Source: Liolophura sinensis
Lineage: Eukaryota
Direction: 5' to 3'
NCBI RefSeq assembly: GCF_032854445.1
Contig: NC_088304.1
Coordinates: forward strand, 22,425,513 to 22,489,512
DNA: 64,000 nt
Under the pieces are notes generated by a model that saw nothing but the letters and a program-made list of their open reading frames with translations, had not been told where the DNA came from and ran no database searches. Below, in pieces: positions 4,796-49,705 of the stretch (within the stretch, counting starts at the first letter, position 1; every line of letters begins with the position of its first letter). Both the position numbers and the translations under genes were made by a program.

Positions 4796-4848
4796 TTCTC
4801 CCATTGCTGACAAAACTTACTGTTAGAGACACAGGTCTACAGACTTAC

Positions 4849-19446: not shown

Positions 19447-19943
19447 CTGTTTGAAATGAACAGATGGCAAATATAGAAAATAGATCAACACATTTTCTTG
19501 CTAAACATCTCACTCGAAAAATATTATATGTTTAAGTCTTACAAACTATACATTTCCTGTTCTGATTGCATCATATTCCTGTTTCGTTTGGCAGTTTTAT
19601 GAACTACCGGTATTGATTAAGCGGTTTGTTTGAAACAGATGGAGCAGTTTAATAAACTAGAGTTTCCCAAATTTGTTTCAAAATGGTTAATTTGTAGGCT
19701 ATATTTACAAACTAGACACACACATGGCACTTTTGGCAATCTACTGGAATGAAATCTAGAACAATAATAATCAAAGCCAGTTTACAAGTCTTCAGCCAAA
19801 AGCGGCCGATGTCACTTTTACACTGAATCCTGAAACGAAAGTTACCGAAACTTTTCAAATGTTTTTTACGGTGTGCGTCTTCACAAATCTTAACGACACC
19901 TTTTTTCGTCTAACCCTGGCTGATTTTCGGACTTTTGTCTTAC

Positions 19944-20107
19944 CTCCTCATGATTTTTTCGTCTTGAGAAAGGTGAGTGAGCCGCCGTCTTTTCCGTGGA
20001 GCCGTCTCCATGTCGCCGTCGGAGTTGTCAGACGACACAGACAAGCTGCTGGCAGGTCGGCGAACTGTCGTGATCACTATCGTTTTCGGGGTCAAATTAG
20101 TCGTCAT
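19944..20107 (-). CDS. XBP1: X-box binding protein 1 (XBP1) exon 1 (MTTNLTPK...APRKRRRLTHLSQDEKIMR-). The ATG is at 20107.
   Basis: It translates to RKRRRLTHLSQDEKIMRR, close to human RKRQRLTHLSPEEKALRR. The donor is GAG|gtaaga. Confidence 0.8.
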
Positions 20108-20257
20108 CTTGATCAGTTGTGTCTAAAGACAATTTCCACCTTGGAATCGACACACATCGGTGTTTCTGTCCCGTGAAAATTCGCTATTTGTCATCTCATC
20201 TTGCGTGTACTGCTTTTACTCTGCTGCATCTCTTTCGGAGCTTTCTGGATAAGCCAC

Positions 20258-25880: not shown

Positions 25881-27928
25881 AGAATTAGGGTAACAGCATA
25901 GTTCTAATATATAAGGCTGATACATGTGTGTTGAACCGTGCATGTAGATATTTGACATGCTCATTGAACAAAAATGCAATCATACTCTCAGTTTGTGTAC
26001 TGACATTTTCCTACATGCAGTTGTAAGCCCATATCCAAATACATTGGCAATTTACAGAGTGAGTTCATGTGTATTGTATAAAAACTCTGGCTATGATGGC
26101 ATTGATTAATAAGTACGTGTACATCTATGTTGGAGTCCTAACAACAGCACAGGGATAATTATTTGTTGGTGGACTGGATTAGTAGAGAGTTTACGGTACA
26201 AGTGTTGCACCACATTCCCATCAGCCCGGGTCACATTGTGTATACTCATACAGTGTAAATGTAGTATGGAAGGGAAGTTGCACCATGACAGATCAGCACA
26301 AATTCAGTTTTGACTCGCCCAGTTCTTGAGGGAATTGAGCAATACCCTGTCACACATATAAAGTTAGGCCGGTTGTTTTTCACAAGGCCAAACCTGACTT
26401 AGCCAGCGAACCAGGACATGGGCTTACAGGCAGCTTGAGGAAAATATGATGTGAGAGCTTTTATGGCAGAGGTAGGCTGGTAACTATTTCCTGTTCTTGC
26501 ATGTTCAGGCTTGCCCATTCCAACTTGGCCTTGTAGATTGTAAATGCTGTTCTATTGTAAATATTTTATACGTATAAGCTGTAGGGTTGGAGTGAGGCAG
26601 GTAGCTCAGAGCTTAGAGCGCCTGTGTCAGGTAAACAGGTCAGGTAGGTGTGTCACCTCAGGTGTAGTCACATGTGTAGACCTACCACCAGCAGGTATAC
26701 AGAATGCATGTACCCTATTTCTTCAACCTTTTCAACCACCTCTGCAACGAATATTTTCAAACATTTTGATGGAACTCTGGGGTGTAGACCAATAATTTGC
26801 ACAGTCTTAAGAAGCTTGCATCTTTATTGATCCAAAGATGTCAATTTTGTCATCATTTTTATAATAATTGTATGCATGAATTTGACTGAAAAGAAAAGTG
26901 CTTTAGTGGTTGAATAGGTTGAAGATTTACAGTATTGCATGTATAGACACCTATATAAATGTATTAATGTATACTTGTATATTGTACTTGTACCTGGAAT
27001 ATAGGAGATTTATGCTATATGTTCAGTTTCTGTTTTTATAAGAAATTGTTTTTTTTTTTTTGTTTGGGGAAAAAATTCTGTGAGAATACAAACTGTACAG
27101 AAACAGTGTTGCCAGTCGATTAAGGTACATTGTATGCACAGGTGATTGGTAAAATATATACATGTGGTTGCTATGTCCATGCCTAACGTATAGCTGCTCT
27201 GTTGTATGAATGCATTGTACATGCAGTCAATGCAGCTTCTTGTAGTAAATTGACGTTTCTAGAAATGCGTCAAGTACCGCTGAAAACACACATCAGTAGA
27301 TTTGCGAATGGATTAAGAATGTCTGGAGCTTGTCACAAGTAGCTGGCATGTACGTTTGTATATTTGCGTGGTTGATATGGTTTAGGGGAAACGATAGTGC
27401 TTGTATAATCTTTAACTTGCTACAAACGTGATTTCTCGTGTCTGAGGGATTGAGTGATTATGATTTAGTGTTTGTGTTATTTGTGTAACTTTTTTTCTGT
27501 ATTAAATTAAACATACATAGGAAAACTGGTATTGTGATGGATACGTCTATATGTGTGGTTTCTTAAGTGACAATGTAATGGTGTGTATGCTATGGTAGCA
27601 TCTATCAGTGCACGCATTTGTACACGTATATTTAACCTGTAACTTTTTCTTGTCAAAAAAAATTGTGATTTTAGTAAGCTGCAAAATTTGATATGTCAAT
27701 TGAGGATACATGTATGAGACATGACTCTTTTCAGATTTAGCTATGTACATTTGTAGTTGTCATACTAAAGCTGTGTTATGACAATTACATGTAGTCTCTC
27801 TTTGTTTTATCTAAGTGTCATAAATATTCATATACATGTATTTTCAGGAAGTCAGGTAGCCATTGGAGTCACTTTTGAAGACTAGGCATTTCATCATATA
27901 GGAATTGTTGCCAGGGATATAACTCAAA

Positions 27929-28068
27929 ATGGCCGCCCAGAAGCGAGCATCGGATGAGTCCATCTATCGTATCCCTCCATATTACTACCTCCATGTCCTC
28001 GACCAGAACACGAATGTGACTACCGTCGAGACTGGGCCAAAGACATACATCCGCCAGGATAATGAGAG
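27929..28068 (+). CDS. MVP: Major vault protein (MVP) coding exon 1 ([46 protein letters not shown]).
   Basis: ORF 27929..28168. Close to the human MVP N-terminus ([36 protein letters not shown]). Donor AG|gtacgc. The exon probably starts at acceptor 27848 with an 81-nt 5'UTR. Confidence 0.9.
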
Positions 28069-28427
28069 GTACGCACCATCTTACAAATTCTTCTTCCAGA
28101 CTCCTTATGTACAGTGCATGCGCCATTCTCTAGTTTTGCTTAACATGGTTCATTGGAACCACTATTAAATTTTTTTCACAAATCTTGAACAATACTGGGG
28201 TCACGCTGATGAGGCAGGATATCTTGTCAGAAAACAGAAACACACTTCCACAGCCATTGTTTCTAATATTACTTTATACACATGCTTATCTTTATGTGAA
28301 GCATGCACAAAGTTATTCTTTCCAACACCTGACACAATTTTAATGATGAGCGCTGATTAAATAGTTCCGCAGAAGAAATCGGTGGTGAGGCTAAGCCTAA
28401 ACACGTCCAAATGTGCATTACACAGAC

Positions 28428-28556
28428 TGGAAATGTCAAGCGTTGGCTAGTGTCGAAAAGTCAAGCGTTGGCTAGTGTTGACTCGAAATGTCAAGCGTTG
28501 GCTAGTGTTGACTCGAAATGTCAAGCGTTGGCTTGTGTTGACTCGAAATGTCAAGC
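28428..28556. repeat. 30-bp tandem repeat of about 4 units (GAAATGTCAAGCGTTGGCTAGTGTTGACTC) in MVP intron 1
   Basis: seen directly. Confidence 0.9.
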
Positions 28557-28937
28557 ATAATAACTGATGGCCTGTTACTTAAAACTAATCATTACTTCTG
28601 TATTTCACCTAAAGTGTGGTCACTTTCCGAAACACATAAAGACTTTTGACTCCAATAGTCAAGTTTGTCTGATTAGAAGTTAATCAGGCCTATATATTAA
28701 AGGTCAGAATAAGGCCAAATTTATCGCTTCAAAAAATGCTACAGGTAAGGTGCAGTACAGTACGATTGTTTTACCTGATCAAAACTGATCAATATAGATC
28801 GATGCAACATTTTGCACATTTTGGTCCATGCAGGTTCCCGTCTAAATGCAGTTTGGCCCCAGAAGCGTCTTAGCCATTTTTGTGGAGTAAGCCGAGAAAT
28901 TGTAATGATGTATACATGTACCAAACTTACAAGTCAC

Positions 28938-28965
28938 AATACATGTATATATATATATACATATA

Positions 28966-29030
<65 letters not shown>

Positions 29031-29034
29031 ATAT

Positions 29035-29098
<64 letters not shown>

Positions 29099-29100
29099 GA
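28938..29100. repeat. Compound (TA)n/(GT)n/(CA)n microsatellite in MVP intron 1
   Basis: seen directly. Confidence 0.95.
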
Positions 29101-29337
29101 GGCGTATTTCAAAATTAGACAGCATCTGCATGATTTGTGTGGTATGGGTATGAAGTAATTCTGTATTAGACAGTATATGGATTATTAATTTAATTTGGTC
29201 CAGATGTATTAACTGGTGTGACGTGGTGATGATCAATAATATGAAATATTCTTAAGTATTGGCGTAAAACACCAGTCAGATAAATAAATCCATGTAAATC
29301 ATACTGTACTATGTAGTGTGACATGTATACTTGTCAG

Positions 29338-29533
29338 GGTGGTGTTTGGCCCGGATAAGATGATCACAGTGCCTCCCCGGCACTACTGTGTCATCGAGAA
29401 CCCTGTGGTCAAAGACAAGGAGAACAAGCCAGTGACCGACCCCAGCGGTCAAGCCAAACTCGCTCACGCTGACCAAGAGATCAGGCTTGCCCAGGAGCCC
29501 TTCCCTCTCTACCCTGGCGAGCTTTTGAAATTG
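29338..29533 (+). CDS. MVP: MVP exon 2
   Basis: [23 protein letters not shown]...[16 protein letters not shown]. Acceptor ttgtcag| and donor TTG|gtgagt. Confidence 0.9.
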
Positions 29534-29608
29534 GTGAGTCATTCTGCTTGCTCAGGCTGAAAAGTAGACTTGACAAAAATTTACATGTGGAAGCTGTCTG
29601 TTTGCGTG

Positions 29609-29750
29609 TGGAAGGTCTGCCAACAACCTGCAGATCATCATGGGTTTCCCCCAGGCTCTGCCCAGTTTCCACCCACCATAATGCTGGCTGCCGTCGTATA
29701 AGTGAAATGTTCTTGAGTACGGCGTAAAAACACCAATCAAATCTGTTTGC
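29609..29750 (+). mobile_element. SINE 3' fragment in MVP intron 2
   Basis: core GGAAGGTCTGCCAACAACCTGCAGAT...GTATAAGTGAAATGTTCTTGAGTACGGCG. Confidence 0.75.
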
Positions 29751-30544
29751 ATGTGCAACAATTTGTTAAAGTGAAGATAGAGGAAAGTTAATTGTATTGG
29801 CATTACTTTTATCCGCAGTATTTTAAATCCTATGATTTCTATTAAGAGCGTTTAGAGGTACCTTAAATGACCTAAAAAATTTGGAATACAAAAATGCAAT
29901 ATTAGAGGTCAGTAAATGTCACAAAATATCATTTTTGGTTCTGAAACTTACAATTTTCTAGTAGAATGTCATCCTATGTTCCAAGCAAACCTTAAAACAC
30001 CTTTCTAAAATCAACAGAACTCGGAAAATCAGGAAAAATAGGCAAGATAGTTATGGACGAGATTTATGGTCATTTAGTGCAGGTAGGTGTAGGTTGTAAG
30101 GCCGCATGACGATTCTTATGGATAACAAACTTCCCGGTTCGAGAACAGTATTATCCTTAAGTATCATACCCTGCAATCCATATATGTTTTCTGTATGCAA
30201 GCAGAGCAGTAGGCTACATTAGAGCAATGTACATATGTAATAGTGTATTCAGGGCTGTATGATATTAGTTTCACCTCTCACAATAGCCTTACAAAGGCTT
30301 TAACTTACAGTTTGTGTACATGACATAGGGCTGTTCTTAACAGTGTTTGTTGTCGAGTTTCGTTCACTTCTTTTGTATGGGGTGGGTATCCGTTTTTTTT
30401 TTTGTTGTTTTTTTTTTTGGACTTCCTGTTTTGAGGAGCCTATCCAGATTGTCAGAGTTATCTGTGCCGTCAGGTACCTGTACGTTTTAGTGGTCTGGCT
30501 GCATATGTTTGAAGTCATTTACGGTGATACGTCAGCAAAGCGCA

Positions 30545-30725
30545 AGGATCATGCATAACATCACGCCAGGAAAAATGGGAAACTAGACAAAATATTTTAT
30601 TCCCGAATTATCCTCTGAAACTAACTACAGCAGTTTTAATATGATGGAATGTTTATTACAATTTAGGAAAGCAATGTTTATCCTCATCGCTTAACCCTAC
30701 TTTTAAAACATACAGGCCTTGACAC
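30545..30725 (+). repeat. Interspersed repeat 'family C', copy 2 (MVP intron 2)
   Basis: see 8430-8640. Confidence 0.5.
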
Positions 30726-30989
30726 TGGAGCATATGTAATATAATCAGGCTTGACTCACATGACATAGGGACACCTGATTAACCATGCTGTAGATCAGTG
30801 AATGACTCTGTAGTTAACAAGGTATATCTTTTTGGCAAATACAACTTTTCTTACATGTACATTATCCAAATCAAACCAAGTTAAATTCCGCATTCACCAA
30901 CTGGCACTGAATAAGTTTGAGTAGATTTGTGTGATGTTCACCATCGGACAACAAATGAAGCTAATGATGCAAAGTGCTGGTAGCTGTCA

Positions 30990-31052
30990 TACTAGCATAA
31001 GTGAACTCTTTTTGAGTATGGTGAAAAACTCAAATCAAATAAATAAATAAAT
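30990..31052 (+). mobile_element. SINE tail fragment immediately upstream of the MVP exon 3 acceptor
   Basis: GTGAACTCTTTTTGAGTATGGTGAAAAACTCAAATCAAATAAATAAATAAATC. Confidence 0.55.
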
Positions 31053-31079
31053 CATTTGTTTCTTTTTAGGCTGTGACAC

Positions 31080-31203
31080 CTCTGAAAGTAGTAGTCGCTA
31101 ATGCAGCGCTAAGACTGCGAGCTATTCTAGACTTTGAGGACGAGTCCGGCGAGAAGCGGGTAGCAGGGGATGAGTGGCTGTTTGAAGGACCAGGTACAAA
31201 TAC
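31080..31203 (+). CDS. MVP: MVP exon 3
   Basis: [41 protein letters not shown]. Acceptor tttttag| and donor CAG|gtacaa. Confidence 0.9.
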
Positions 31204-31433
31204 AAAATGATTTTCATTCGTGTAAAGAACATGCTAAGGACAGGTAACCATTTGAATCTTCAGCTTTCATGTGCCTGTCAGTTTCATCATTGGGATTTAC
31301 CTTCTTTTTGACAATGTAAACTTGGATTTTTCGTTTCACTTGAAAAGAGAATTTTTAGAAAAAAATTATTCTCATAAAATCTTGCTTTTGTTAATGAAAC
31401 TTATACATGTATATATGGTATTAATAAGATATC

Positions 31434-31706
31434 GGGGCCTCCATGGCTCAGTTGGTTAGCGCGCTAGCGCAGCGCAATGACCCAGAAGCCTCTCACCAAT
31501 GCGGGCGCTGTGAGTTCAAGTCCAGCTCATGCTGGCTTCCTCTCCGGCCGTACGTGGGAAGGTCTGTTAGCAACCTGCAGATGGTCGTGGGTTTCCCCCG
31601 GGCTGTGCCCGGTTTCCACCCACCATAATGCTGGTCGCCGTCATGTAAGTGAAATATTCTTGAGTACGGCGTAAAACACCAATCAAATAAATAAAATAAA
31701 TAAATA
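31434..31706 (+). mobile_element. SINE, full-length, in MVP intron 3
   Basis: head plus core plus (AAATAAAT)n tail. Confidence 0.85.
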
Positions 31707-31903
31707 AGGTATCATCCTACCATCAAGATAAAACTCGAAACATTTTTCCAAGACCAAAAGAATGTTCAGAATCCATCAAGATCAGTAACTTTGTCATGGA
31801 GAGGAGGAGGGGGTTAGATTTTTTGTTATCATGAGTGCTTGTGGTTAAAACAGAGGTCAGTTTTTTAAAATATTGCTAATTTTGTTTGTCTGATTTTGAT
31901 TAG

Positions 31904-32130
31904 GAACTTACATTCCTCGTAAGGAAGTTATAGTGGAGGAAACGATCAGAGCGACTGTCATCAAGCCTAACCAGGCCATTCGTCTGCGGGCGCGCAAAGA
32001 GTGCGTGGACAGGGAGGGTGACTCCAGGGTGACAGGTGAAGAGTGGCTTGTTAAGAAGACAGGTGCTTACTTACCTGGGGCCTATGAGGAGGTGGTCGAT
32101 GTTGTGAATGCCTATGTGCTCACAGAAAAG
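31904..32130 (+). CDS. MVP: MVP exon 4
   Basis: [50 protein letters not shown]...VLTEK. Donor AAG|gtgaga. Confidence 0.9.
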
Positions 32131-32674
32131 GTGAGAACACACCTGTGGCAGCCACAGGCCATAACACTAATACAAACAGATCTGAGGGTACAGTTTTGTG
32201 GGGAAGTCACAGTTCAGTAATACATCCAAGTTTAGTTTGGAGTGTACACAGGTCTTCAGCCTTAATGACATATCTGGCTGAGGCCCTGTTTTCTGTTAAC
32301 TCTCTGTGGTCAGTTTTCTAATTATAGGTTAAAACTAAACATGATTTTTAACATGGGTAAGTTTATCAAAATTTGATGAATTTGGACGAGGGTGGACAGT
32401 GGTCTGATTTGCTGTTATACATGTATAATAACAATGTATTTTTAACTGTACAAAGTGAATATTTAAGTTAATTCTTATGAAAGCAGCTTCAGTGTTTTAC
32501 TCATTTCTGACATGTGAACATTTTGGCTATAAGTGATAAATTTTTAAAAAAATCAAATCATTTTTAAAGCATTTCAAATGCTCATGAAGTTATGACTACA
32601 GTTCCGGTGGCCAGGCTAGTTGCCTATACATAAATAACATGGAATGCAGGTTCTTGGTGCTTCATGTGTTTCAG

Positions 32675-32800
32675 AAAGCTCTTCACGTTCGAGCTTTACG
32701 GACATTTAAGGATGATTTTGGAACCACGCGAAAGAGTGGAGAGGAATGGCTGATCACATTCAAGGACTCCGAAACCCACATTCCTCAAGTCTATGAAGAG
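32675..32800 (+). CDS. MVP: MVP exon 5
   Basis: KALHVRALRTFKDDFGTTRKSGEEWLITFKDSETHIPQVYEE. Acceptor gtttcag| and donor GAG|gtgaag. Confidence 0.85.
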
Positions 32801-33406
32801 GTGAAGATCAAGGAATTCATGTTTCTATTAAAATTAATTGTGATGTTTATGCTTGAAATTATATGACTGCTGTAGGAATGTAACAACTTGGTATTGTATG
32901 TGTAAGATTCAGACGATATACATGCAATTTCTGCGATTTAGTAGGATTTTGTTATCAATGAGAGAACAGTGCAAGCGAAGTTAAGTGTCTTTTAAGCCAG
33001 AAATAGCACTCTGGTATAGAGATTCTCATTAATGCAGTCAAAAAAATTCAACTTTGAGTAACACCATTATTGGTTATTTGAGGTATTTTAAACCATAGAT
33101 ATATGTTTACTAGTTTTAGAGAGCATCAGACTTTGGTTGAACTTTATGAAGTTTACATGTAAATTCCAATTTAAATACAACTTAAAGCTGTGCTTTGTAT
33201 GTGTGGGTACTGTGTAAAACTACACTCAAATAAATAAAAGAAATAAATAAAGCTGGTTTTTGTAAAACTGGCTTGATATCATGACTTTAGTGTATTAAAA
33301 TGACTATAATATCACCAAAAGCAAAGTCACATGCACTTTCCAGATTAGAACGATAAAATGTCTTTCCAAAAAAGGCAATTCTTCTTATGCCATGTGTGTT
33401 GTGTAG

Positions 33407-33517
33407 GTGGTGGGTGTTGTGAACATCACAACCCTGAGTAACCGTCAGTATTGTGTTATCCTGGACCCCGTGGACGACCTTGGAAGGCCTCAGCTCGGAC
33501 GCAAGAAGCTCGTTAAG
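33407..33517 (+). CDS. MVP: MVP exon 6
   Basis: [37 protein letters not shown]. Donor AAG|gtaacc. Confidence 0.85.
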
Positions 33518-33604
33518 GTAACCGAATGTTCCAACCTTTCATCACATAAAGATAGTTCTAGCATGTGTAATGAGGAAGCCATTAACATGTATGGAAATAT
33601 AATA

Positions 33605-33800
33605 GGAAATAACCTGTTTCTTCTAAAATTTGGGACACCTAGTCTCCTTTTTTTAGCCAGTATGTATGTAATTCGTGCAGGAATACTGAGTTTCTTGTAT
33701 CTCACAAGGTAAGACCATTTAATGAACAACATGCTCATGTCTTTACTTTTCCAAAAGGCTAGTAAAGAAAATGTAATATTCCAATTTCAACACTACTAAT
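33605..33800 (+). repeat. Interspersed repeat 'family D', copy 2 (MVP intron 6)
   Basis: see 25690-25880. Confidence 0.5.
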
Positions 33801-34273
33801 GTCTGTCCCATCTATGCCAATACTGATCTCTGTAGTTGTTCTGTCCTGTTTATTACACTGGCACTTTAATATAGGTCTGTGATTTTATATCATTGGACAT
33901 AAAGTTCCACCCAGATAACTTCTTTATAACATATTTCCGGTTTTCACCTGGACGAAACTAAACAGAAGAGTTTTACATGTATATTGCTGAGAATGGGTTA
34001 AAATACTGATACGGGTACCTTTGAAAATGAGAAATGTTTACCATTGGAAATAAATGAACATGTGAACATTACAGTATTTCTACATTACCATAGAATCATA
34101 TTGAAATGTTTTCAGTATTGATCAGTTTTCTTCCGTCATGTGCACATGTTATGGTTTCTTTTTGAAAGCATGTATTTTCATCTGTTTAAGGGAGAAATAA
34201 AAAAATTTCTTATAACGTAGACTACACGTATTATGGTTTGTTTCTGGAAACTTATATTGTCATCGGTTTTCAG

Positions 34274-34399
34274 GGAGAAACTTCCTTCTTCTTGATGCCT
34301 GGAGAGAAACTGGAGAAGGGCATCCAGAATGTGTTCATATTGGGAGAAGATGAAGGACTGATCATCAAGGCTAACGAGAGCTTCAAGGAAAAGGAATCG
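34274..34399 (+). CDS. MVP: MVP exon 7
   Basis: GETSFFLMPGEKLEKGIQNVFILGEDEGLIIKANESFKEKES. Donor TCG|gtaaga. Confidence 0.85.
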
Positions 34400-34654
34400 G
34401 TAAGAGTTAATCAACACCCCCTTCCCCCCACCCGACCCTCTTTTGTATCAATGATAAAATGGTTAAGAGTTATTCCCCCTTTCCAAGGAAAATCAAAATT
34501 TAATTTTGTACTGTTTGTCTGTCCCAGGGTTCCACCATCCAGCCCTGGATAGCAAAGCATATGAACTCACAAATGCAGAAAATAGTGGTGTATATTGGTA
34601 TCTATTTCACTGTGTGGAGCAAGTTTATATTAACCACTGTTGTCGTTGTTGTAG

Positions 34655-34804
34655 ACAACAGAACGTAAGCCTGGTGACCGCTGGATGATCAGAGGACCTC
34701 AGGAATATGTCCCTCCTGTCGAGGTTGATGTTGTCATGAAGAGAACTGCCATTCCATTGGACGAGAACGAGGGAATTTACATCAGAAATATCAAGAATGG
34801 AAAG
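34655..34804 (+). CDS. MVP: MVP exon 8
   Basis: [50 protein letters not shown]. Acceptor gttgtag| and donor AAG|gtgagg. Confidence 0.85.
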
Positions 34805-35775
34805 GTGAGGTTTTAGAGCTTACATGTAGATACCAGCAATACCATAGGTTCTGCCATGATGTTTTAGGAAATATGATTAAAAACAAAATCCCATTTAAAA
34901 TTCAAAAGTTTTCAAAAAAAAAAAATACCTTCATTTTAAAGACGTTTTTTCACTGAATAATGTGGAGTCAAATGTATGAACCATTTCAAGGGTTTAATAG
35001 TTCACCAGGATAAAACTAAAAAATCTTGTTGGCTTCTTTTCATATATGATAATGTATACCCAGGCAAGCAAAACAGCTTTTCTGACATCAAATTCTGTGC
35101 TTCATGGTGAAAAAAATATCATGATGACCTGATTCATTGTTATTAACTTTTGATCGATATGGTAGAGCATCCTGGTATATTGATATATATGTGTATGTAT
35201 GGCTAAGTTTATGTGATATAGAATTAAGTTAAATGTATTTCTAAGTGTTTATGGTTTGGATGGGTATTTCCCATTTGTGCTTTATACTTTAATGTCAAAT
35301 GTCCATTATGCCATAGACTGTTTCATAGTTAGCAGGGCAGTCACGTATTGGGTATCATATTTGTTTTGTTGTACATTGGCATTGAATTTTGATCAATTCA
35401 GTGTCAGCAGCCTGTGCTATGTCAATTGAGAGGCATAGCTTCTGCAGCATATTTATGCTGTAAGCAGGATGCCATCCCTGATGCATGTTGTAGAAACTGA
35501 AAGAGGACAGCTAGGCTAAAGCTAGGCATACATACAAGGTTAAGATCCAGCTATGATGTGAATGCTGGTTTAGTCTTTAAGCTGTATGGCCATCGACAGC
35601 TGAGAACAACTTCTGATGTGTTGAGTTAAGTCGCGTCTTAAGCTGTCATGCCTGCTGAGCTTAAGACATCATCTGGAAAATATCAGTATTTTGAAGCACG
35701 GTTTTGTTTTGCGGAATCATAATCAGCACTTTGTCTTACCATTGACTTATTTTAGATTGAAATCTATTGATTTAG

Positions 35776-36017
35776 GTCCGAGCTATTACCGGCGAAACCT
35801 ACATGCTCAACCAGGATGAGGAATTGTGGGAAAAAGATCTGCCACCTGTCGTAGAAAACCTCTTGATGCAAGGTCGCGACCCTGTAGCGGACAGGAGTGA
35901 TAGAAAACCGCAGCAGCAGGAAGGTACCATGAAACGCGACAAGACCAGGGTCGTGACCTTCAGGGTGCCTCACAATGCTGCTGTACAGATTTATGATTAC
36001 AAGGCAAAGAAAGCCAG
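35776..36017 (+). CDS. MVP: MVP exon 9
   Basis: [24 protein letters not shown]...[18 protein letters not shown]. Donor AG|gtacgt. Confidence 0.9.
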
Positions 36018-36458
36018 GTACGTGACCATAAGACAGTGGCAGCCAGATTCAACATAAGGAATGCACACATGCTGTAAATCTCTAAGCTCTTGTAGTAAAG
36101 GTGTCCTACAGCAAAAGCTTTCTTTGCTATGTTTCTGTGTGGCATTTAAACATTCATAAACAGTAACATATATATTTATAATGAAACAGAACGCTACACT
36201 TGTAGTTTATTGCTCACTAACTTCACAGATCTCCTGTTTGAACTAGCCTGTAGGTTTGATACAATATAGAACATGGGCAAAGTTTGTCAATGAACTTTGT
36301 CAGCAAAGCAATCGCTCAATCAGTCCTCTTGTTATTGATATACATGGTATTTTTTATACCTGAGCTGGTGATGTTACAGCCTGATGAATAGTTCACTCAA
36401 CTATAATGTCTGTTAGTCAATAAATCGATGAATCAGTAATCTTGTTATTGACATACAG

Positions 36459-36656
36459 GGTAGTTTTTGGACCTGAGCTGGTGATGTTGCGTCCGGATGA
36501 ACAGTTCACCCAGCTAAGTCTGTCAGGAGGGAAGCCCAAAAAGCCTAATGTCATCAAATCCCTGTGCCTGTTGCTGGGACCAGATTTCTGTACAGACATC
36601 ATCACCGTGGAGACTGCTGACCATGCTCGGTTACAACTTCAGCTTTCCTACAACTG
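36459..36656 (+). CDS. MVP: MVP exon 10
   Basis: [65 protein letters not shown]. Donor TG|gtaagt. Confidence 0.9.
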
Positions 36657-37612
36657 GTAAGTTTACATAGAACTTTGAGCAAAATGGTGCCCTGAAAGTA
36701 TGCAATTTGAAACGTGCAATAAAAGTTGAGGAATATTAAACAGGCAAAGCATATGTACATGCCGTTAATTTTTCGCACAAAAATGGAAGCTTCACCGACA
36801 ATTTGTGACGTGAAGTAAACGTGTAAAATCATGGCGATACGAGTCTTCCATTTTGAAACCCTTCATTTTTGAGAGTCTGCGTTTTAATACTACTCTTCAT
36901 GGCTTCTGTCTGACTGATGTAGGAGACGTGGCAGGTAGCAGAATAGCATCACTTACTTTGATATAGTTTTGTGTGGTTTCTGTAAACTGTGTTCACTTCA
37001 CAGTTCTGGACGTTCGGCACATCCAGAACAAGAGTCGAGTGCGGATTAAACCTGTCCGGAACATGTTCTTGTCTTTGCCAGCTGGTGGAGCCGTTCAGAC
37101 AGTGATGTCACACTAATGATTAAGCAAAAGGCTTCCAGTTTTGCTATATTTAAAAACGCTAAACAATAAATATTACGAAAAATCAATGCAAATCCAATTA
37201 AATTTTCCCTACTATTTTAGAATAGCCCAAAGAATTACCGTTCACAAAATATCTACTTCATTGTTTACATGTTATTGTTCAAAGTAAGCAGTAAAATTCG
37301 AAAAATTCATGAAGTATTTAGAATTATTTTTATACTATAAATAGTATAGGTTCGAGTCAGATGTTTATTTGATCTGTTTATGGTAAACAGAAAATTTGAT
37401 TTCATTAGGGAATATTCATGTCTTGCCAAAGATCTAGGATATAGCCTTTTTAAAAGCCAGAATGACTCAAATTGATGCCTTTAACAACAGAGTACTGAAC
37501 TCAGAAATGAAACTTCCAACAGCCAGAATGTAACCATCTGAAGTATTGCCTACGTCTCTATTCCGATATGTGAACGAGTAATAAATGGCTTTCATACTTT
37601 CCTCTTTTCCAG

Positions 37613-37754
37613 GCATTTTGAAGTTCAGGAGAAAACAGATGAAATTGCTGCTAAGATCTTCAGTGTGCCAGACTTCGTAGGTGACGCGTGTAAAGCAATT
37701 GCGTCCCGGGTCAGAGGTGCAGTGGCACAGGTGCAATTTGACGATTTCCACAAG
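37613..37754 (+). CDS. MVP: MVP exon 11
   Basis: [47 protein letters not shown]. Donor AAG|gtaagc. Confidence 0.9.
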
Positions 37755-38074
37755 GTAAGCTATTTTTCAAGGACTTTTTCCGAAGTCGTGTTCAAAATGA
37801 AACTGTTCATCAAAGATCACTTGTCATCTACCAATATCTCACATGTGGGAGTGTTTGCCAGTAAATTGCTAAAGGTAGGTTTCCCCACAAGTAAATCTGA
37901 CTGCCATTATCAAATGCAATATTTTTGAGTATAGTGTTAAACAATACCAAAAAAAAAAAAATGTACGGCGTAATCTTAGTGTGATGCCCGAAAAGTTCGA
38001 TCTTTGCCCAGTCTTTGAGTTACGCCTGATGCAGGACATAGTATTTCACTCCCTTTCACTTCTTGGTGCTTCAG

Positions 38075-38286
38075 AATTCAGCCAAGATCATCCGATCCTC
38101 GGTGTTTGGCTTTGACGATAAGCAGAAGGTCCGTGACAGATTTCAGTTCATGCAGAACAACCTGGTGATCACCAGTATAGACATCCAATCAGTGGAGCCT
38201 GTGGACCAGCGGACGCGCGACTCACTGCAGAAGTCTGTACAACTGGCCATAGAGATCACGACAAATTCCCAGGAGGCCGCAGCAAG
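38075..38286 (+). CDS. MVP: MVP exon 12
   Basis: [17 protein letters not shown]...[32 protein letters not shown]. Donor AG|gtctga. Confidence 0.9.
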
Positions 38287-38372
38287 GTCTGACCAATCAT
38301 ACACTCTTATTTATTCACCTGGGTCTCTTTGGCCCAGGTGTTTGCACGCTAGTGCTGCACAATGATTTTGGA

Positions 38373-38575
38373 GACTCACCAATGTTGTCGCTGTGAGTTC
38401 AAATCCACCTCATGCTGGTTTCCTCTCTGGTCTTCAGTGGGAAGATCTTCCAGCAACTTGTGGATGCTCTTGGGTTTCCCCTAGGCTCTGCCCAGTTTCC
38501 TTCAGCCATAAAGCTGCTTGTCATTGTATTAATGAAATATTCTTGAGCACAGTGTGAAACACCAGTCAAATGAAT
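38373..38575 (+). mobile_element. SINE, 5'-truncated and diverged, in MVP intron 12
   Basis: core and tail match. Confidence 0.7.
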
Positions 38576-38744
38576 CATTTTTGACCTGCTTTTTGATGGT
38601 ACACATGCCATGTTGATAATTTAAATGCAGATTTAGTGGAAAATGTAGATACATGTGTTAAAAGCACATTCATGTAACATTGTGCATCTTGGATGTCTTG
38701 ATTTGACACATACATGCTATATGATGGTATTGGTTGTGTAAAAA

Positions 38745-39125
38745 AGTTAGCTGTCAGTGGCTTACCAGCGAACACAGTTGGTAGAGCTTCTGCTTCGGGA
38801 GCGTTAGATCCAGGGTCAATTCTGGTTCGAGTCACACCTAAGACCTTAAAAGAGGAAGTTGTAACTTCCTCGCTTGACGTTCAGCATGAAGGGGATAGTG
38901 CAATGACTGGTTGACCTGTATCAGTATAATGGCTCAGGCGGTGCAGCTTCCTTGCCTTCGGTAAGGCATCTCATTGAAGCAACACTAGATAAAAGAGCGA
39001 TGGAAATCCGTCCTGCAACAAGGAGGCACATTACATGCACTCTAAGGATTCCTTCGTCATTATATGACTAAAAAATTGTTAAGTACGACGTTAAACCCCA
39101 AGCACTCACTCACTCACTTAACCTG
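38745..39125 (+). mobile_element. Second interspersed repeat family ('family B'): tRNA-like head plus body, ending ...GTACGACGTTAAACCCCAAGCACTCACTCACTCAC.
   Basis: The 3' portion recurs at 44405-44470 (+) and as a reverse-complement fragment at 49720-49760. The head GTTGGTAGAGC...GGGTCAATTCTGGTTCGAG is tRNA-like. Confidence 0.5.
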
Positions 39126-39565
39126 TGTAACAGAAAGGCACAATTCCTCTTTTTTCATGTCAGTCCATCTAATGAACAAGATATGACTTTTCTGGAAAAA
39201 AAACCTGAGAGAGAAATGTAGTCTGTATGTTTCAGCACCACTAATATCTGCCTTGAAAGTAAGAATTGCTGTAGATACTTGCCGTTTGTATTCCACCTTT
39301 TCTACAAATGAAGGGTGAAGAATTGTTGAGTATGGCATTAAACAAAAAGCAAGTAAAATTAAACAACAATACATATAAAAAATGAAAAATGCTTGATTCC
39401 TATTCCCAGTATATCCATGATAGAAAATACTCCTTCGTCTTCAGGCATGTTGGAACTAGCTGCTTTCTACGCTGCCTGTCTCCATCCCAAATCTTTTTAC
39501 AAAAGGGGCGAGTAAAACCATCTCTTCTGTCTTCATATAAACTTGATTTTCAATTTGTCCATCAG

Positions 39566-39809
39566 GCATGAGGCTGAGCGACTGGAGCAAGAGGCCAAAG
39601 GTCGTCTGGAGAGACAGAAGATTAACGACGAGGCAGAAGCAGAGAAATCCCGTCGCGAGCTGCTGGAGCTGCAGGCGCAGAGTGCAGCCGTGGAGAGCAC
39701 AGGGCAGGCTAAGGCTGAAGCTCAGTCCCGCGCTGAATCTGCCAGGATTGAAGGAGAGGCTGCAGTAGATCAAGCTAAGCTCAAGGCCACAGCCTGTAAA
39801 ATTGAAGCT
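39566..39809 (+). CDS. MVP: MVP exon 13 (cap-helix coiled coil)
   Basis: [67 protein letters not shown]...KIEA. Donor GCT|gtaagt. Confidence 0.9.
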
Positions 39810-40582
39810 GTAAGTACCCGTACTGCGCCCTAGATACACCCAGTTAGCTGATAGTTGCCAGGTTGTTAAATGAAAGATAACAAATGATAAACCCTAATTC
39901 TTTAACATTTGAATCCTGCTCTGAAACTAGTAGTTAGACACATTATGGGAGAACTGTGGATCACAAAGAAATAATTTGCACAGTTTTGCAAGCTTGTGTC
40001 ATTTTAAGACACAAGCTTGCAAAACTGTGCAAATTATTTCTTTGCACAGTTTTTAACATAATTTTAACATAATTTCCATTATAATTGTATGCATAAATTC
40101 CAGGTAAAAAGTGCTTTAGTGGTTGAAAAGTTTGAAGATTTGTAGTAACCTGAGTTATTCAGGAAGAGGAGCGGAGAGAGACCTTAAACTGCCAAAGCCA
40201 TGTTTTTCTGATGTGCTGCGTAACTTGATAAATCAATACTTAATCTGGAATTCTTACCAATTCTCTTGATGTAAGCAGAAACCACTGTTTTCCCAGCTGA
40301 TATAGATAACTTGGTGCCTGATAGATCAAAACTGATAACATGATGGTACTTTCCATTTTCTCAATGTGTGTGATATTGATTACTTTGAACTGCGATATCC
40401 CAGTTATCCAGTATCGCAAGGACAATAAGTTATGCTTTTTCAACTTCCTTTGGGATCCTTTATTCATGCATGTACACATGTAGTCTGGTGCTGTCTTTTG
40501 TGTTAAGATGTTTGCATTTTAGTTGCTGAGACACATGAGGTGTGGGTTTAATTTCTTGAATGTGTGAATTTTCCCAAACTTG

Positions 40583-40760
40583 TTGTTGTCGGGGCCTTGA
40601 TGACAATAACCGGTTATTGTCGGGGCCTTAATGACAATAACCTGTTCTTATCAGGGCCTTGATGACAATAACCGGTTATTTTCGGGACCTTGATGACAAT
40701 AACCAGTTATTGTTGGGGCCTTGATGACAATAACCAGTTATTGTCGGGACAATAAGTGGT
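40583..40760. repeat. 32-bp tandem repeat of about 5.5 units (TTGTCGGGGCCTTGATGACAATAACCGGTTAT) in MVP intron 13
   Basis: seen directly. Confidence 0.9.
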
Positions 40761-40916
40761 TTAACATTCACATAAAACCCAGTCTTTTTCATCGGTGTAG
40801 TCTGTCTGTATGTTACGTGTTGGAAAGTTTGTCAGTAAATTACCAGATGTTGATGGTTTACCCCGGAGCACTAAGGGTTAAAAAGGCTGTCATTTTGTAA
40901 GTGAAAAAATCCAAAA

Positions 40917-41100
40917 AATATATCACTTTGAGCACCAATCAAATGAGACACACCAGACACTGATGGCAATGGAGCAGCAGGTTGCAGATGTTTGTGGGTT
41001 TCCAACATCCCAGTTTTCTCCCACCATAATTCTGGCCACCGTCATATATGTGAAATACTCTTGAAACAACGTAAAACTCCAATCAACGAAAAAAAAAAAC
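40917..41100 (+). mobile_element. Two adjacent SINE fragments in MVP intron 13
   Basis: One fragment is the tail ...GAGCACCAATCAAATGAG. The other is the core ...CCCACCATAATTCTGGCCACCGTCATATATGTGAAATACTCTTGAAACAACGTAAAACTCCAATCAACGAAAAAAAAAA. Confidence 0.6.
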
Positions 41101-41235
41101 AAATCATGTACCTGATGGCTCTTCCACCTACGTGACTGCCGGTATAAAATATGCTTGATTATGGTACATAACACAGATCAAGTCATTACAAACATCAGAC
41201 GGTAAAGATTCTTGATTGATTTGGTTTTTGTGCAG

Positions 41236-41571
41236 GAATCAGAGCTGGAAAGATTGACACGAGCCAGAGAGGCCGAGACAAAGTACCTGAAGGAACAGAA
41301 CGATCTTGAGCTGGAAAAGGCTAGGGAAATGGCCGACATCGAGACCGGCAAGTTCAAGGACATCGTGACCTCTATTGGTGCCGACACAATTCGTGCCATC
41401 GCAGTCTCCGGGCCTGAGATGCAGGTGAAGATGCTTGGTGCACTCGGACTTAAGTCCACGCTCATTACTGATGGCAGCAGCCCCATTAACCTATTCAACA
41501 CTGCCCAGGGGCTGATTGGGGGCATGGTGCCCAGCCGACGTAGGGCAGATGAATCTGACATTGATGAGTAA
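41236..41571 (+). CDS. MVP: MVP exon 14 (terminal; the stop codon TAA is at 41569-41571).
   Basis: [18 protein letters not shown]...[41 protein letters not shown]...*. The summed CDS is 2574 nt, which is 857 aa. Confidence 0.9.
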
Positions 41572-41997
41572 AACAAGACTCCCCCTACCTTGCATGCATT
41601 TCTTAAACTCGTTGTTCCTAAAAGAATTAATGCTTAATGTCAAAAAGCTTATATAAACATATTGTTTTGTTCATGTATGGACTTGAGGTACAGTGCTTAC
41701 TGCCGTATGTAAATTGTCATGCACACAAGATTGTGTCTTTTCCTGCCACACCTATTATAGAGGGTATGCACATCATCATCATATCTTAGAAGAACATCTT
41801 TGCGGCCATAATGGAGTGATATTGGCATACATCTATATAACAGTCTCCAGGAAGGCTGTCAAAAGTAGACCATGAAAGTTCTCTATACAGGTAGGAGTTG
41901 ATGACACTTTTCTGTGCGGTGATGAGAGAATGAAACTTTTTGGTAGTGTAGTGTACATGTTGTATATGATGTCTTTTGACGTTGTGTTTTTCTTGTA

Positions 41998-42003
41998 AAT
42001 AAA
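41998..42003 (+). terminator. MVP: MVP polyadenylation signal AATAAA
   Basis: AATAAA lies about 430 nt after the stop codon, and GT/T-rich sequence follows. Confidence 0.5.
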
Positions 42004-43149
42004 GACGCTGTTTTCTTTGTATAAATATTATGAAATGCGGAAAAAAATGCAAAGCTTAAGACGAATAATGTATGAATTGTGAATAGACTGCTGAATGTTA
42101 AAAATTATTATAACTCCATGTTGAATTATGTGATGTTGCACCCAGCGATTTTATCTTGTGTAATTAGATACGTGGAAATGTTGAAAAAAAAAAAAAATGT
42201 TGATGAATTATCGTGTGAAAGTTTAAACATGTAGATGTCATGTAGATAAACTGGGTTTGTTATGCGTACTGAGCCTCTGTTGATCTATTAACCTGGGAAC
42301 ATGGCTCAGGTGTGCTAAACATTTTGTTGACCAAAAAATGTTTCCTTGCTTATAAGTGCTCAAGAAAATTACCTGTGCCCTTAGGACATGCAGTGGCTTT
42401 GATTATTACTTATAACTCTTGTACAGAGATTTAACAGTCTTGTTAACAAATATATACGTGTGATGTAATTTGCAAATTTGGATCACACAGTCTTTTCTTC
42501 AGACATATTGTTCATTGCTTCTGTATTCTAAAAGATGTTTTGAGGCAGAGCTGTGATATAAAGAGGTTATTGAAGCCTGTGAAAACGTGTCAATCATGAC
42601 TGCTTTGAATTTTACTATGTGCATGAATATAGATGTAGCATTTCATTGTGATAACTTTCTTAGGCCTCAACATTTTATGGACCACTAGAAAAAATGCTGT
42701 GGAAAAAAATAATGAAGCCAATATTTTTTGTATCCTCTTTTCTTTTTATTTGTTTGGATCAATAATACATATATAGTGTTATTTTTATAATTAAATTTTA
42801 TTGTTTTTCCCCTTATATATGAAGTGACTTGTTGAATCAAAACCTTAACAGAAGGTTGACATAATAAATCTATGTTAATATTTCTGACTGTAAAGTATCC
42901 ATGAACAGCATTTATTTTGTTTAATTTATCGATGCCAAAGTCACAAGAACTATAAGTGTGCAGACATTTTAGCGACACTTTGTAACACTCTCCTCAATCA
43001 GTCACAATGTTTCGGAGATGTTGGCTATTTCAGTTTACAGTTTCCATCACTAAGTTAGGGAAACGATTGCTTCATTCCTGCTGTACTCACAGGATCACCT
43101 TCCACCTCCCACCTCCCTATTCTGTAGACCCCACCTCCACCCTGTCCAC

Positions 43150-46465: not shown

Positions 46466-46666
46466 ATGTCTGGTGAGATGGGGGATAAAAAGATGAAGAT
46501 GATAATAGATGTAGACACTGGAATTGATGATGCCCAGGCTATAATGATGGCAGTATCTAGGCAGGATGTTGACGTGATTGGCATCACATGTGTCTCTGGG
46601 AATGTGGGAATCGACCAAGTCTGTGTGAACACTTTGCGGGTGCTAAAATTCTGCAATAGATTAGAT
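46466..46666 (+). CDS. Inosine-uridine preferring nucleoside hydrolase (IUNH)-like, exon 1 (MSGEMGDKKMKMIIDVDTGIDDAQAIMMAV...CNRLD).
   Basis: ORF 46466..46699. It carries the IU-NH family motif D-x-D-x-G-x-D-D. Donor GAT|gtgaga. Confidence 0.8.
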
Positions 46667-46884
46667 GTGAGAGAGATGGTTGATTTGTATTATAAGTAGT
46701 CAACTTTAAAATGTGACAGCTTCAGCTAAATGGTGATATATATGTAGTGATTCTGTGTGTACAAATTATAATTAGTCAAAGATTGGTATTAGTTTGCAGT
46801 CAGCTTTCCAAAATGACTTGTCTGCATTTCAAGCTTCTAATATTCCATTATCATTTCTTAGCTGCCTCAGCTGATGTACAGAGC

Positions 46885-47640
46885 CACCCACACACCACTG
46901 GCTCACCACAGGCACACCACTGGCTCACCACAGACATACTACTGGCTCACCACAGACATACTACTGGCTCCCTACAGACATTCCACTGGCTCACCACAGA
47001 CATACCACTGGCTCACCACAGACATACCATTGGCTCACCACAGACATACCACTGGCCACTGGCTCACCACAGACATACTACTGGCTCACCATAGCCACAC
47101 CACAGACACTCCATGGGTATGTTACAAACACAGAATAGACAAGCTACATGTTAACTACAGGCACATCACTGTCTCACCACTGGAACACCAGTAGCTCACC
47201 ACAGACACACCATAGACACACTAAAGGCGCACCACAGGTACGTAATGATCACAACACAGGCTACTACAAGCACACCAAAGGCTCACTACAGGTACGCCAC
47301 AAATTAATACCAGGCTAAACACGTACACCACAGGCTCACCACTGGATCACCACCAGCACACCACATACTGACCACAGGCACACCATGGCTCACCATGATC
47401 ACAATACAGGCACACCACTGGCTCACCACAGACACACCACAGGTTCATGACCAAAAACCACAGATACAGCATGAACACACCACTGACTCACCACAGACAC
47501 CACTGGCTCACCACATGCACACAACTGGCTCTCCACAGGCAGACAACAGACACTCTACAGGCACACTATTTGCTCTTCACGGGGAGATCACAGGATTATC
47601 AGTGGCTCACAACAGTACACACCACAGGCGCCATGGCTGA
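46885..47640. repeat. Degenerate 22-bp tandem array (CTCACCACAGACATACCACTGG) of about 750 bp in IUNH intron 1
   Basis: Seen directly. It generates the spurious ORFs 46747..47094, 46874..47194 and 47395..47644. Confidence 0.85.
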
Positions 47641-47786
47641 GTAGGCTACACAGTTGTCTATTTCACACTTATATAAGGGTCGTTACTTCTGATGTGTCCC
47701 AATGTCAGTCTTGACAGGGCATCTGGGTGTACATGTGATTGATTGACAGTGAACATTCATCACATGTTGTGCTTTCCCCTCTACAG

Positions 47787-47973
47787 ATACCAGTTTTCAA
47801 AGGGGCGGCCAGCCCCTTCATCGTGGAGGGTAGCTTGTCTCAAGCCCGATACCATCATGGTAATGACGGGCTTGGGGATGTTCCAGATATTTCACCTGTT
47901 CCACCTGGCCCCAGCCTCCTCCAATCACAGGGAGCAGTGCAAGCCTTGCTGGAACTGACCAATCAACATCCAG
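47787..47973 (+). CDS. IUNH-like exon 2
   Basis: IPVFKGAASPFIVEGSLSQARYHHGNDGLGDVP...ELTNQHP-. Acceptor ctctacag| and donor CAG|gtaaga. Confidence 0.8.
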
Positions 47974-48518
47974 GTAAGAAGCCACACAGAGAAAAAATTC
48001 AGAATGTAATTTCAACAGGAATGAAAAACTATCAGATTTCAAGAAGGAATTTGAGAAGAAAATCTGAGCTAAAATATAAGCAGATTAAGTGTAGTTACAT
48101 GTTTAAATGTTTAAATGGTCATGGGTTCAATGTACATTGGAACATCAAGGGACCACAATTTCTTGATTATGTTACTGGCCAGTTTTGAAAAATTTGAACC
48201 ATGTAGATTCTGTGTTAGTTGTGTGCATTCGTGAAAGAAAATAAGACACCTCTCAGAACAAATGTTGAATGACATTCAGTGAATTTTACATTCAGTGAAA
48301 ATTTTGTAATTACTAAACTGGTGAAGTAATTTCCCTATTCTTTTGCTAATGCATCAGGAAGAGGTCTTGGGCTTATCAAGCAGAGGTTGTGGTCATTCAT
48401 ATAAAGCTGCAGACATTAAAGTGGAAACTACCAACGAAAGCTAAAAGAAAAATTTATCTACATCCTTGAAGAGAACTGCAAATTTTTTGGGTCTGAAACT
48501 GAATGTTATCAGGGTACA

Positions 48519-48768
48519 AGGGGCCTCCGTGCCTCTGTTAACGACCCAGGAGCCTATCACCAATGCGGTCCCTTTGAATTCAAGTCCAGCTCATGTCGGC
48601 TTCCTCTCCAGCCGTATGTGGGAAGGTCTTCCAGCAACCTGCGGATGGTCGTGGGTTTCCCCCGGGCTCTGTTCAGTTTCTACCCACCATAATGCTGGCT
48701 GCCGTTGTATGAGTGAAATATTCTTGAGTACGGCGTAAAACACCAATCAAATAAATAAATAAATCAAA
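48519..48768 (+). mobile_element. SINE, full-length, in IUNH intron 2
   Basis: head plus core plus tail. Confidence 0.85.
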
Positions 48769-48894
48769 TCAGGTTACACGTGGTTTCCACATATATGTTT
48801 TTTCTATGATTTTCTATGCAGGTATGCAAGCCATGTGATTACACACAAAGAACTTAATCAAGTGTAACGGGAGCAGCTTTCCAGTGCTTATACT

Positions 48895-48990
48895 ACCATT
48901 AGCAAGAGGGAATTTCCCTTTAGCTCAGTTAGTAGAGTGCTGGACGTCAGCTGCAGAGACCCGAGTTCAAATCATTGTATGACCCACATA
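48895..48990 (+). pseudogene. tRNA-like sequence, either a tRNA pseudogene or the head of another SINE
   Basis: It has a D-arm-like TAGCTCAGTTAGTAGAGTG and a T-arm-like GAGTTCAAATC, but the acceptor and T stems do not pair. Confidence 0.3.
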
Positions 48991-49167
48991 GTGAAATCCT
49001 TCAACCATTACACAAGCGCCACCCTGGTTTTCACTGTGGCAATTTTGTACACATGTGATTAATGTTCTTCTGTATCAGAAGAGTGCAGAATGTTTTTTCC
49101 TTACAATATTACATTGGATGATTGTAAATATTTGTGTTAAAAATACTCAGTGAATTATTTTCACATG

Positions 49168-49370
49168 CCAGTCGCTGTGAGTTCAAGTCCTGCTCATGTT
49201 GGCTTCCTCCCAGGCCGTAAGTGGGAAGGTCTGGCAACAACCTGTGGATGGTCATGGGTTTTCCCCGGGCTCTGCCCGTTTTCCTCCCACCATAATGCTG
49301 GCAACCATCATATAAGTGAAATATTCTTGAGCACGATGGAAAACACCAATCAAATAAATAAATAAAATAT
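49168..49370 (+). mobile_element. SINE, 5'-truncated, in IUNH intron 2
   Basis: core plus tail. Confidence 0.8.
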
Positions 49371-49588
49371 TTTCGCACGCAAAACTCCCACCATCTTATA
49401 CAACCATAGGAGACACCTGTTTTGAAAATCAAAAGCACTGGAGTTCACCTTTAAAACTGTTTTTTCCTTCATACTTTTTTTATGGCTATCCTGTTATGAC
49501 ATATATTTGTTTACTTCGTTAGCATCTGGTATAATACTGAAACAATGTAACACAGAAGAGTCGATGATTCTTTTTTTTTTCTCTGCAG

Positions 49589-49705
49589 GGGAGATAACTC
49601 TAGTGGCACTGGCACCTCTCACAAACATAGCCCTAGCAGTGAAGTTGGATGCAGGCTTTGGTAGAAGACTAAAGCACATGGTTATAATGGGGGGGAACAT
49701 TGAAG
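49589..49705 (+). CDS. IUNH-like exon 3
   Basis: GEITLVALAPLTNIALAVKLDAGFGRRLKHMVIMGGNIE-. Acceptor ctctgcag| and donor GAAG|gtaaaa. Confidence 0.8.

Follow-up and report, generated by a model that had tools for sequence, protein, structure and literature searches.

The 64-kb stretch of genomic DNA analysed here (the window) carries a gene for the major vault protein (MVP) on its + strand, with an XBP1-like gene upstream and a nucleoside hydrolase gene downstream. The introns of the MVP gene hold copies of two short interspersed elements (SINEs), which we term SINE-A and SINE-B, together with tandem repeats, a duplicated exon boundary and a hairpin. MVP is among the best-conserved and best-described metazoan genes, and 78 MVP chains build the barrel-shaped vault ribonucleoprotein particle.

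An MVP gene in fourteen coding exons

In order to establish the gene model, we read the region 27500-42500 directly and rebuilt the gene with the end sequences of each exon as anchors. The resulting gene spans 27929-41571 on the + strand and has 14 coding exons, which sum to 2574 nt and translate into 857 amino acids (aa) with no internal stop. All 13 introns begin with GT and end with AG. Moreover, an exact spliced-alignment routine returned the same 13 junctions as its only solutions, at nucleotides 140, 336, 460, 687, 813, 924, 1050, 1200, 1442, 1640, 1782, 1994 and 2238 of the coding sequence (CDS), with intron phases, in order, of 2, 0, 1, 0, 0, 0, 0, 0, 2, 2, 0, 2 and 0. The exon count, length, single reading frame and canonical splice sites given by an initial annotation of this DNA are therefore borne out by the exon rebuild and its translation, with one boundary corrected: exon 3, which had been started at 31080, begins at 31070. 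The start codon (ATG, 27929-27931) lies in the context caaaATGG, with A at -3 and G at +4, and is preceded 9 nt upstream by an in-frame TAA; the stop codon is a TAA at 41569-41571. The first AATAAA past this stop is likely to be the polyadenylation signal of the gene.

The predicted product is recognized as MVP along almost its whole length. Pfam matched it to Vault (2.8e-72, in four stretches), Vault_2 (5.9e-39, in two stretches), Vault_3 (1.3e-35) and Vault_4 (8.2e-22), with the vault families above their curated cut-offs, and to MVP_shoulder (PF11978) at residues 521-638, where the match covers profile positions 1-118 of 118 (E = 9.4e-55). When compared with solved MVP chains (9z4w, 4hl8/4v60, 2qzv), residues 7-841 aligned with chain residues 2-850 in a single stretch (E = 0, 1244 bits), with only three gaps, each short and in variable loops. 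The solved R1-R7 fragment 3GF5 matched residues 7-386 (E = 1.6e-166), the cap helix and cap ring (residues ~640-841) aligned without gaps to the full-length solved chains, and residues 744-841 matched chain 9z5n_B (E = 2.1e-29).

The product thus shares with solved rat and human MVP (MVP/LRP; PDB 4V60, 4HL8, 2QZV, 9Z4W) the order of vault repeats, shoulder, cap helix and cap ring. It differs from them in length (857 aa as against 861-893 aa), in a loop ~10 residues shorter after residue 611, in a loop 3 residues shorter near residue 440 and in having 2 residues fewer near residue 350; its final 16 residues lie outside the aligned part. All the MVP hallmarks named in the initial annotation (N-terminal repeats, shoulder, cap helix and C-terminal motif) are supported by the Pfam matches and the alignment to solved chains, and the two protein motifs that it quoted, of 18 and 20 residues, are both found in the translation. 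Protein alignment disclosed no frame or boundary errors, the product being colinear with the solved chains and its intron positions identical to those of Haliotis.

Conservation of the gene and its introns

In a collection of 5.8 billion protein sequences, we found 2987 MVP homologues at E <= 1e-50. The top homologues were the named MVPs of Haliotis cracherodii, Lottia, Solemya and Mytilus, with 80-82% identity over 99-100% of the query, and the closest mollusc homologues were 849-870 aa long. The annotated mollusc MVPs of Haliotis cracherodii, Lottia gigantea and Mytilus trossulus resemble the present gene both in this level of protein identity and in gene structure. A neighbour-joining tree and distances of the MVP protein placed it among lophotrochozoans, outside the sampled gastropod and bivalve clades; therefore, the host is not close to any annotated species.

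To characterize the gene structure in relatives, we compared the genomic loci of four annotated orthologues (Haliotis cracherodii, Lottia, Mytilus and the deuterostome Saccoglossus) via exact exon chains. Haliotis MVP also has 14 coding exons, and 13 of its 13 introns agree with ours in position and phase, the last five being offset by -6 nt owing to an indel of two codons in exon 9. Every Lottia intron (12/12) has a counterpart here, and the intron at CDS nt 924 is missing in Lottia. The same full agreement holds for Mytilus (11/11), and 11 of the 12 Saccoglossus introns match, the remaining one being extra. At the DNA level, only exons could be aligned with the orthologous loci, whereas introns could not, and SINE-A, present here, is essentially missing from the MVP loci of Haliotis, Lottia and Mytilus. 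Against the four orthologues, the proportion of nonsynonymous differences (pN) was 0.13-0.16 and that of synonymous differences (pS) 0.72-0.89, values which indicate that the MVP gene is under strong purifying selection. A relaxed tblastn search of the 64 kb found no further MVP-like coding segment save a decayed exon-10 fragment, and a search of the introns for extra or mutually exclusive MVP exons returned nothing but this same dead fragment.

Together, the exon-boundary checks, the signature of selection and the tblastn search within 64 kb lead us to consider it almost certain that the region holds an intact, single-copy MVP orthologue of a lophotrochozoan animal, closest to molluscs. Several points weigh against this conclusion. 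The species' own protein is absent from the protein collection, since no match exceeds 82%, and there is thus no independent annotation of the exact locus. Rfam found no vault RNA in the 64-kb window, and the vault partner genes TEP1 and PARP4 are absent from it. In addition, expression of the gene is inferred, and its untranslated-region exons and alternative isoforms are putative.

The locus could instead be an MVP copy (a pseudogene or redundant paralogue) that is unexpressed or was inactivated recently and has kept its intact appearance. The decayed duplicate of the exon-10 boundary in intron 9 does indicate that local rearrangement has occurred; however, being wholly intronic and no longer having its AG, this duplicate should leave splicing undisturbed. 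The 857-codon frame and 13 canonical splice-site pairs are intact, pN is far below pS against all four orthologues, intron positions are fully conserved, and the window holds no other MVP-like sequence. We therefore give an inactivated copy very little credence and regard the locus as an ordinary orthologue, behaving as expected, of a gene that is already thoroughly known. As such, it would be transcribed from the + strand, its 13 GT-AG introns would be spliced out, and the 857-aa product, with its standard MVP layout, would assemble into the vault particle.

Table 1. Positions of the MVP exons and of the repeats and signals associated with the gene (window coordinates).
Feature	Position	Strand	Remarks
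MVP exon 1	27929-28068	+	140 nt, begins at ATG; donor GTACGC
Minisatellite, intron 1	28425-28556		30 bp x 4.6; Tandem Repeats Finder; purely local
Microsatellite (TA)n/(CA)n, intron 1	28946-29095		Tandem Repeats Finder
SINE-A 3' fragment, intron 1	29242-29293	+	ends 44 nt before exon 2
MVP exon 2	29338-29533	+	196 nt; bounding junctions at CDS nt 140 (phase 2) and 336 (phase 0) common to Haliotis
SINE-A 5'-truncated copy, intron 2	29608-29753	+	begins 74 nt past exon-2 donor
SINE-A 5'-truncated fragment, intron 2	about 30972-31052	+	(AAAT)n tail 15 nt from exon-3 acceptor AG
MVP exon 3	31070-31193	+	124 nt; acceptor AG 31068-31069
SINE-A full length, intron 3	31435-31702	+	11-bp target-site duplication AATAAGATATC / AATAAGGTATC
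MVP exon 4	31904-32130	+	227 nt
MVP exon 5	32675-32800	+	126 nt
SINE-A tail fragment, intron 5	33183-33250	+	weak match
MVP exon 6	33407-33517	+	111 nt
MVP exon 7	34274-34399	+	126 nt
MVP exon 8	34655-34804	+	150 nt
MVP exon 9	35776-36017	+	242 nt
Decayed upstream copy of 113-bp tandem duplication, intron 9	36310-36422	+	CAT/GG replaces CAG/GG; in-frame TAG and TAA
MVP exon 10	36459-36656	+	198 nt
MVP exon 11	37613-37754	+	142 nt
SINE-A-like diverged fragment, intron 11	37841-37955	+	A-rich tail; found by profile
MVP exon 12	38075-38286	+	212 nt; shoulder domain ends here
SINE-A older full-length copy, intron 12	38321-38583	+	~76% identical to the 31435 copy; 34 nt past exon-12 donor
SINE-B, intron 12	38746-39122	+	(CACT)n tail; 3' module resembles that of SINE-A
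MVP exon 13	39566-39809	+	244 nt; cap-helix coiled coil begins, with the 18-residue motif
Inverted repeat, intron 13	39964-40044		perfect 37 nt, 7-nt spacer
Minisatellite, intron 13	40582-40748		31 bp x 5.4; unit internally palindromic; purely local
SINE-A, two adjoining 5'-truncated pieces, intron 13	40818-40955, 40975-41112	+	found by blastn and profile
MVP exon 14	41236-41571	+	336 nt including TAA; remaining cap helix and cap-ring region, with the 20-residue C-terminal motif
First AATAAA past MVP stop	41998-42003	+	426 nt separate stop and signal

SINEs and tandem repeats in the MVP introns

A full-length SINE-A is ~270 bp long and consists of a head with a box A-like TGGCTCAGTTGG and a box B-like GAGTTCAAGTCC motif, a conserved 3' module and an (AAAT)n tail. 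We found 28 SINE-A pieces in the window by blastn and 31 by profile, many of them 5'-truncated. Inside the MVP gene, blastn recovered 7 SINE pieces and the profile 10, two of the latter being full length and one belonging to the second type, SINE-B (Table 1). Target-site duplications of 11-15 bp flank five of the seven full-length SINE-A copies examined in the window. ARAGORN found no transfer RNA (tRNA) and did not recognize the SINE-A head; a search of the head with Rfam at E <= 1 likewise yielded no tRNA match, just a spurious match to Xist. Because tRNA models do not recognize the head, calling SINE-A tRNA-related is based on its box motifs.

We compared SINE-A with the tRNA-related SINEs of molluscs, which have conserved central domains and tails derived from long interspersed elements (LINEs) (Matetovici et al. 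2016, PMC4758252; Martelossi et al. 2024, PMC11481361). SINE-A is like these elements in its length of ~270 bp, box-like motifs, 5' truncation, tandem-repeat tail and target-site duplications, and unlike them in having a head that escapes tRNA models. SINE-A copies gather inside genes, as reported for bivalve SINEs (PMC11481361). The two SINE-A pieces in intron 13 stand head to tail, 20 nt apart, in a tandem-like arrangement, and arrangements of this kind are known in bivalve genes (PMC11481361).

The initial annotation had counted at least six SINE insertions and three tandem arrays in the introns and had described these introns as packed with SINEs and minisatellites. Both counts hold, the first in view of the 7 or 10 pieces given above and the second by Tandem Repeats Finder, with which we called the arrays. 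Packed, however, is an overstatement, because SINE sequence accounts for 1662 of the 11,069 MVP intron bases (15%) and tandem arrays for 562 (5%), and because similar minisatellites occur throughout the window. Larger ones lie outside the MVP gene, at 3388-4798, 46890-47103, 50010-50671, 56626-57901 and 62858-64000; minisatellites outside the gene include arrays of 43 bp x 33, 78 bp x 16.5 and 47 bp x at least 24, the last of which continues past the window end. Tandem arrays are common throughout this part of the genome, and with much larger minisatellites elsewhere in the window, the MVP introns are therefore typical of their surroundings. We take these introns to have passively gained copies, often 5'-truncated, of a SINE that LINE machinery mobilizes, and local tandem repeats to have gathered in them likewise, as they have elsewhere in the window.

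A duplicated exon boundary and an intronic hairpin

A 113-bp tandem duplication (36310-36535) straddles the exon-10 boundary, taking in the final 36 nt of intron 9 and continuing into the first part of exon 10. The upstream copy, judged by its sequence, is a dead pseudo-acceptor and pseudo-exon that lies 113 nt 5' of the real exon-10 acceptor. Intron 13 contains an inverted repeat, unique in the window, whose hairpin fold has an energy of -61.5 kcal/mol (z = -12.9). It may represent a foldback of very recent origin, a hairpin serving as a Dicer substrate or an artefact of the assembly.

Even with the coding outline right, the real transcript could differ from our model through an upstream non-coding exon, through cryptic sites supplied by the intronic SINEs or the exon-10 duplicate, or through premature polyadenylation at AATAAA in sense SINE tails. 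An acceptor-like ttttcag lies 82 nt 5' of the MVP ATG, and an extra non-coding 5' exon is therefore possible. AATAAA is present in every sense SINE tail, and several MVP isoforms of other invertebrates are given by NCBI (Littorina X5, Branchiostoma X7). However, the 14 exons encode a protein that lines up colinearly with every orthologue, its junctions show no indels other than those in variable loops, and no intron holds an additional MVP-like exon. We consider a differing transcript possible but not probable; it would add isoforms and leave the 14-exon gene model standing.

A truncated SINE beside the exon-3 acceptor

The SINE-A fragment closest to exon 3 had been placed by the initial annotation at 30990-31052, with its tail ~20 bp from the acceptor. 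Its end at 31052 stands, whereas its start lies further upstream, at about 30972, and the distance to the acceptor is 15 nt. As to the suggestion that this tail might provide the polypyrimidine tract of exon 3, we found that the tail is A-rich in the sense orientation and that the pyrimidine tract, TTTGTTTCTTTTT, occupies 31055-31067, in flanking sequence past the end of the SINE. Therefore, the SINE tail does not supply the tract.

The nearest AG upstream of the exon-3 acceptor is at 31015, which leaves an AG-free zone at 31017-31067 made up of SINE-derived sequence and 15 nt of flank. Branch points normally lie inside the AG-free zone, in keeping with scanning for the 3' splice site. Because the zone lies in SINE-derived sequence, this truncated sense SINE just 5' of the polypyrimidine tract most likely now bears the intron-2 branch point, with candidates around CTCAAAT, ATCAAAT and AATCAT. 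Distal branch points are known to exist where long AG-free zones precede acceptors, and the fragment might accordingly be functionally neutral, with a branch point far upstream. In that case, however, several of the AGs at 31015, 31000, 30994 and 30982 would intervene before the used acceptor, and the AG-free zone is wholly SINE-derived sequence plus the 15 nt of flank; we judge a distal branch point unlikely and favor one within the SINE-derived sequence.

A 9-nt inverted repeat that brackets the fragment was considered as a looping-out stem and rejected. The fold of 30925-31075 had a z of -1.8, no better than shuffles, and the minimum-energy fold of this segment omits the repeat.

Mammalian genomes show a depletion of SINEs in the 100 bp next to exons, and elements closer than 20 bp to an acceptor are rare there and regarded as harmful (PMC3088655). 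Elements that are tolerated near mammalian exons tend to be short, and human Alus found there tend to be in sense orientation (PMC3088655). When compared with these underrepresentation zones (Zhang, Romanish and Mager 2011, PMC3088655), the exon-3 SINE falls both within the 100-bp zone and in the class less than 20 bp from an acceptor, and it resembles the tolerated mammalian elements in being short, truncated and sense. The comparison differs from the mammalian case in phylum and SINE family and covers one locus only.

Neighbouring genes

Upstream of MVP, an XBP1-like gene occupies 17890-20122 on the - strand, with its bZIP exon at 19095-19484 (Pfam bZIP_1, 5.4e-12). This exon contains, at 19161-19228, the unconventional IRE1-spliced Hac1/Xbp1 intron with its twin CNGCAG stem-loops, which matched Rfam RF04247 at 47.5 bits against a threshold of 41; besides it, Rfam at gathering threshold found no known RNA in the 64-kb window. 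The long open reading frame (ORF) at 17890-18612 probably encodes the post-splicing XBP1 C-terminus. The first coding exon of an unannotated gene for a serine-rich protein lies on the - strand within 13629-14399, at about 13660-14340, and ends in a GTGAGT donor and in the apparent start of a SAM-like domain. The collection of 5.8 billion proteins contains a single homologue of it, a 290-aa protein of Logan run SRR26493808, to which the exon is 81% identical in protein (tblastn) and 84% in DNA.

Downstream of MVP, a gene for an inosine-uridine-preferring nucleoside hydrolase extends over ~46470-53216 on the + strand. The sequence MKMIIDVDTGIDDAQAIMMA is found in the N-terminal exon of this gene, and the last exon, which matches Pfam IU_nuc_hydro, lies at 52887-53216; the earlier exons, from ~46.47 kb, were read by eye from ORF translations. 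A 22-bp array in intron 1 of this gene yields a His/Thr-rich pseudo-ORF. Two homologues of the hydrolase were retrieved, one of them, from Logan run SRR26493808, being 85% identical. This genomic run is the closest sequenced relative, two neighbour genes matching its contigs at ~85%.

Orientation of SINEs relative to genes

All 10 SINE pieces found by profile in the MVP gene are in sense orientation, on the + strand. The same orientation was seen for four of five SINE-A pieces in the downstream + strand nucleoside hydrolase gene and for six of seven in the upstream minus-strand gene for the serine-rich protein, on the assumption that this gene, whose extent is unproven, reaches the window start. 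Across the three genes, the total is ~20/22 (two-sided binomial, roughly 1e-4); the bias gives p = 0.002 for MVP alone and p = 0.001 for MVP together with the hydrolase gene. It is noticeable, although drawn from a small sample, and runs counter to the expectation from AATAAA in the sense tails.

A rule by which SINE-A is tolerated in the genes of this animal almost only in sense orientation is a tentative reading of these counts, and we hold it to be less probable than its absence. The bias would fit with antisense copies being selected against on account of their T-rich tail, acting as a cryptic acceptor in the way described for Alu (PMC3088655). Alternatively, the orientation in which SINE-A inserts might follow that in which the gene is transcribed. 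The bivalve survey that reported a build-up of SINEs in genes contains no analysis of their orientation relative to genes (PMC11481361).

Significance

The clean, cross-validated MVP exon model could serve as a starting point for annotating a spiralian genome that is apparently unannotated so far. The locus also offers a small, concrete case for SINE tolerance beside splice sites outside mammals, and its SINE and splice-site details are mildly useful and unsurprising. Sense copies can lie as near as 15 nt to an acceptor and may even donate its branch site. Should the sense bias extend across the whole genome, antisense SINEs in a spiralian would face unusually strong selection of the splicing-based sort known from Alu.

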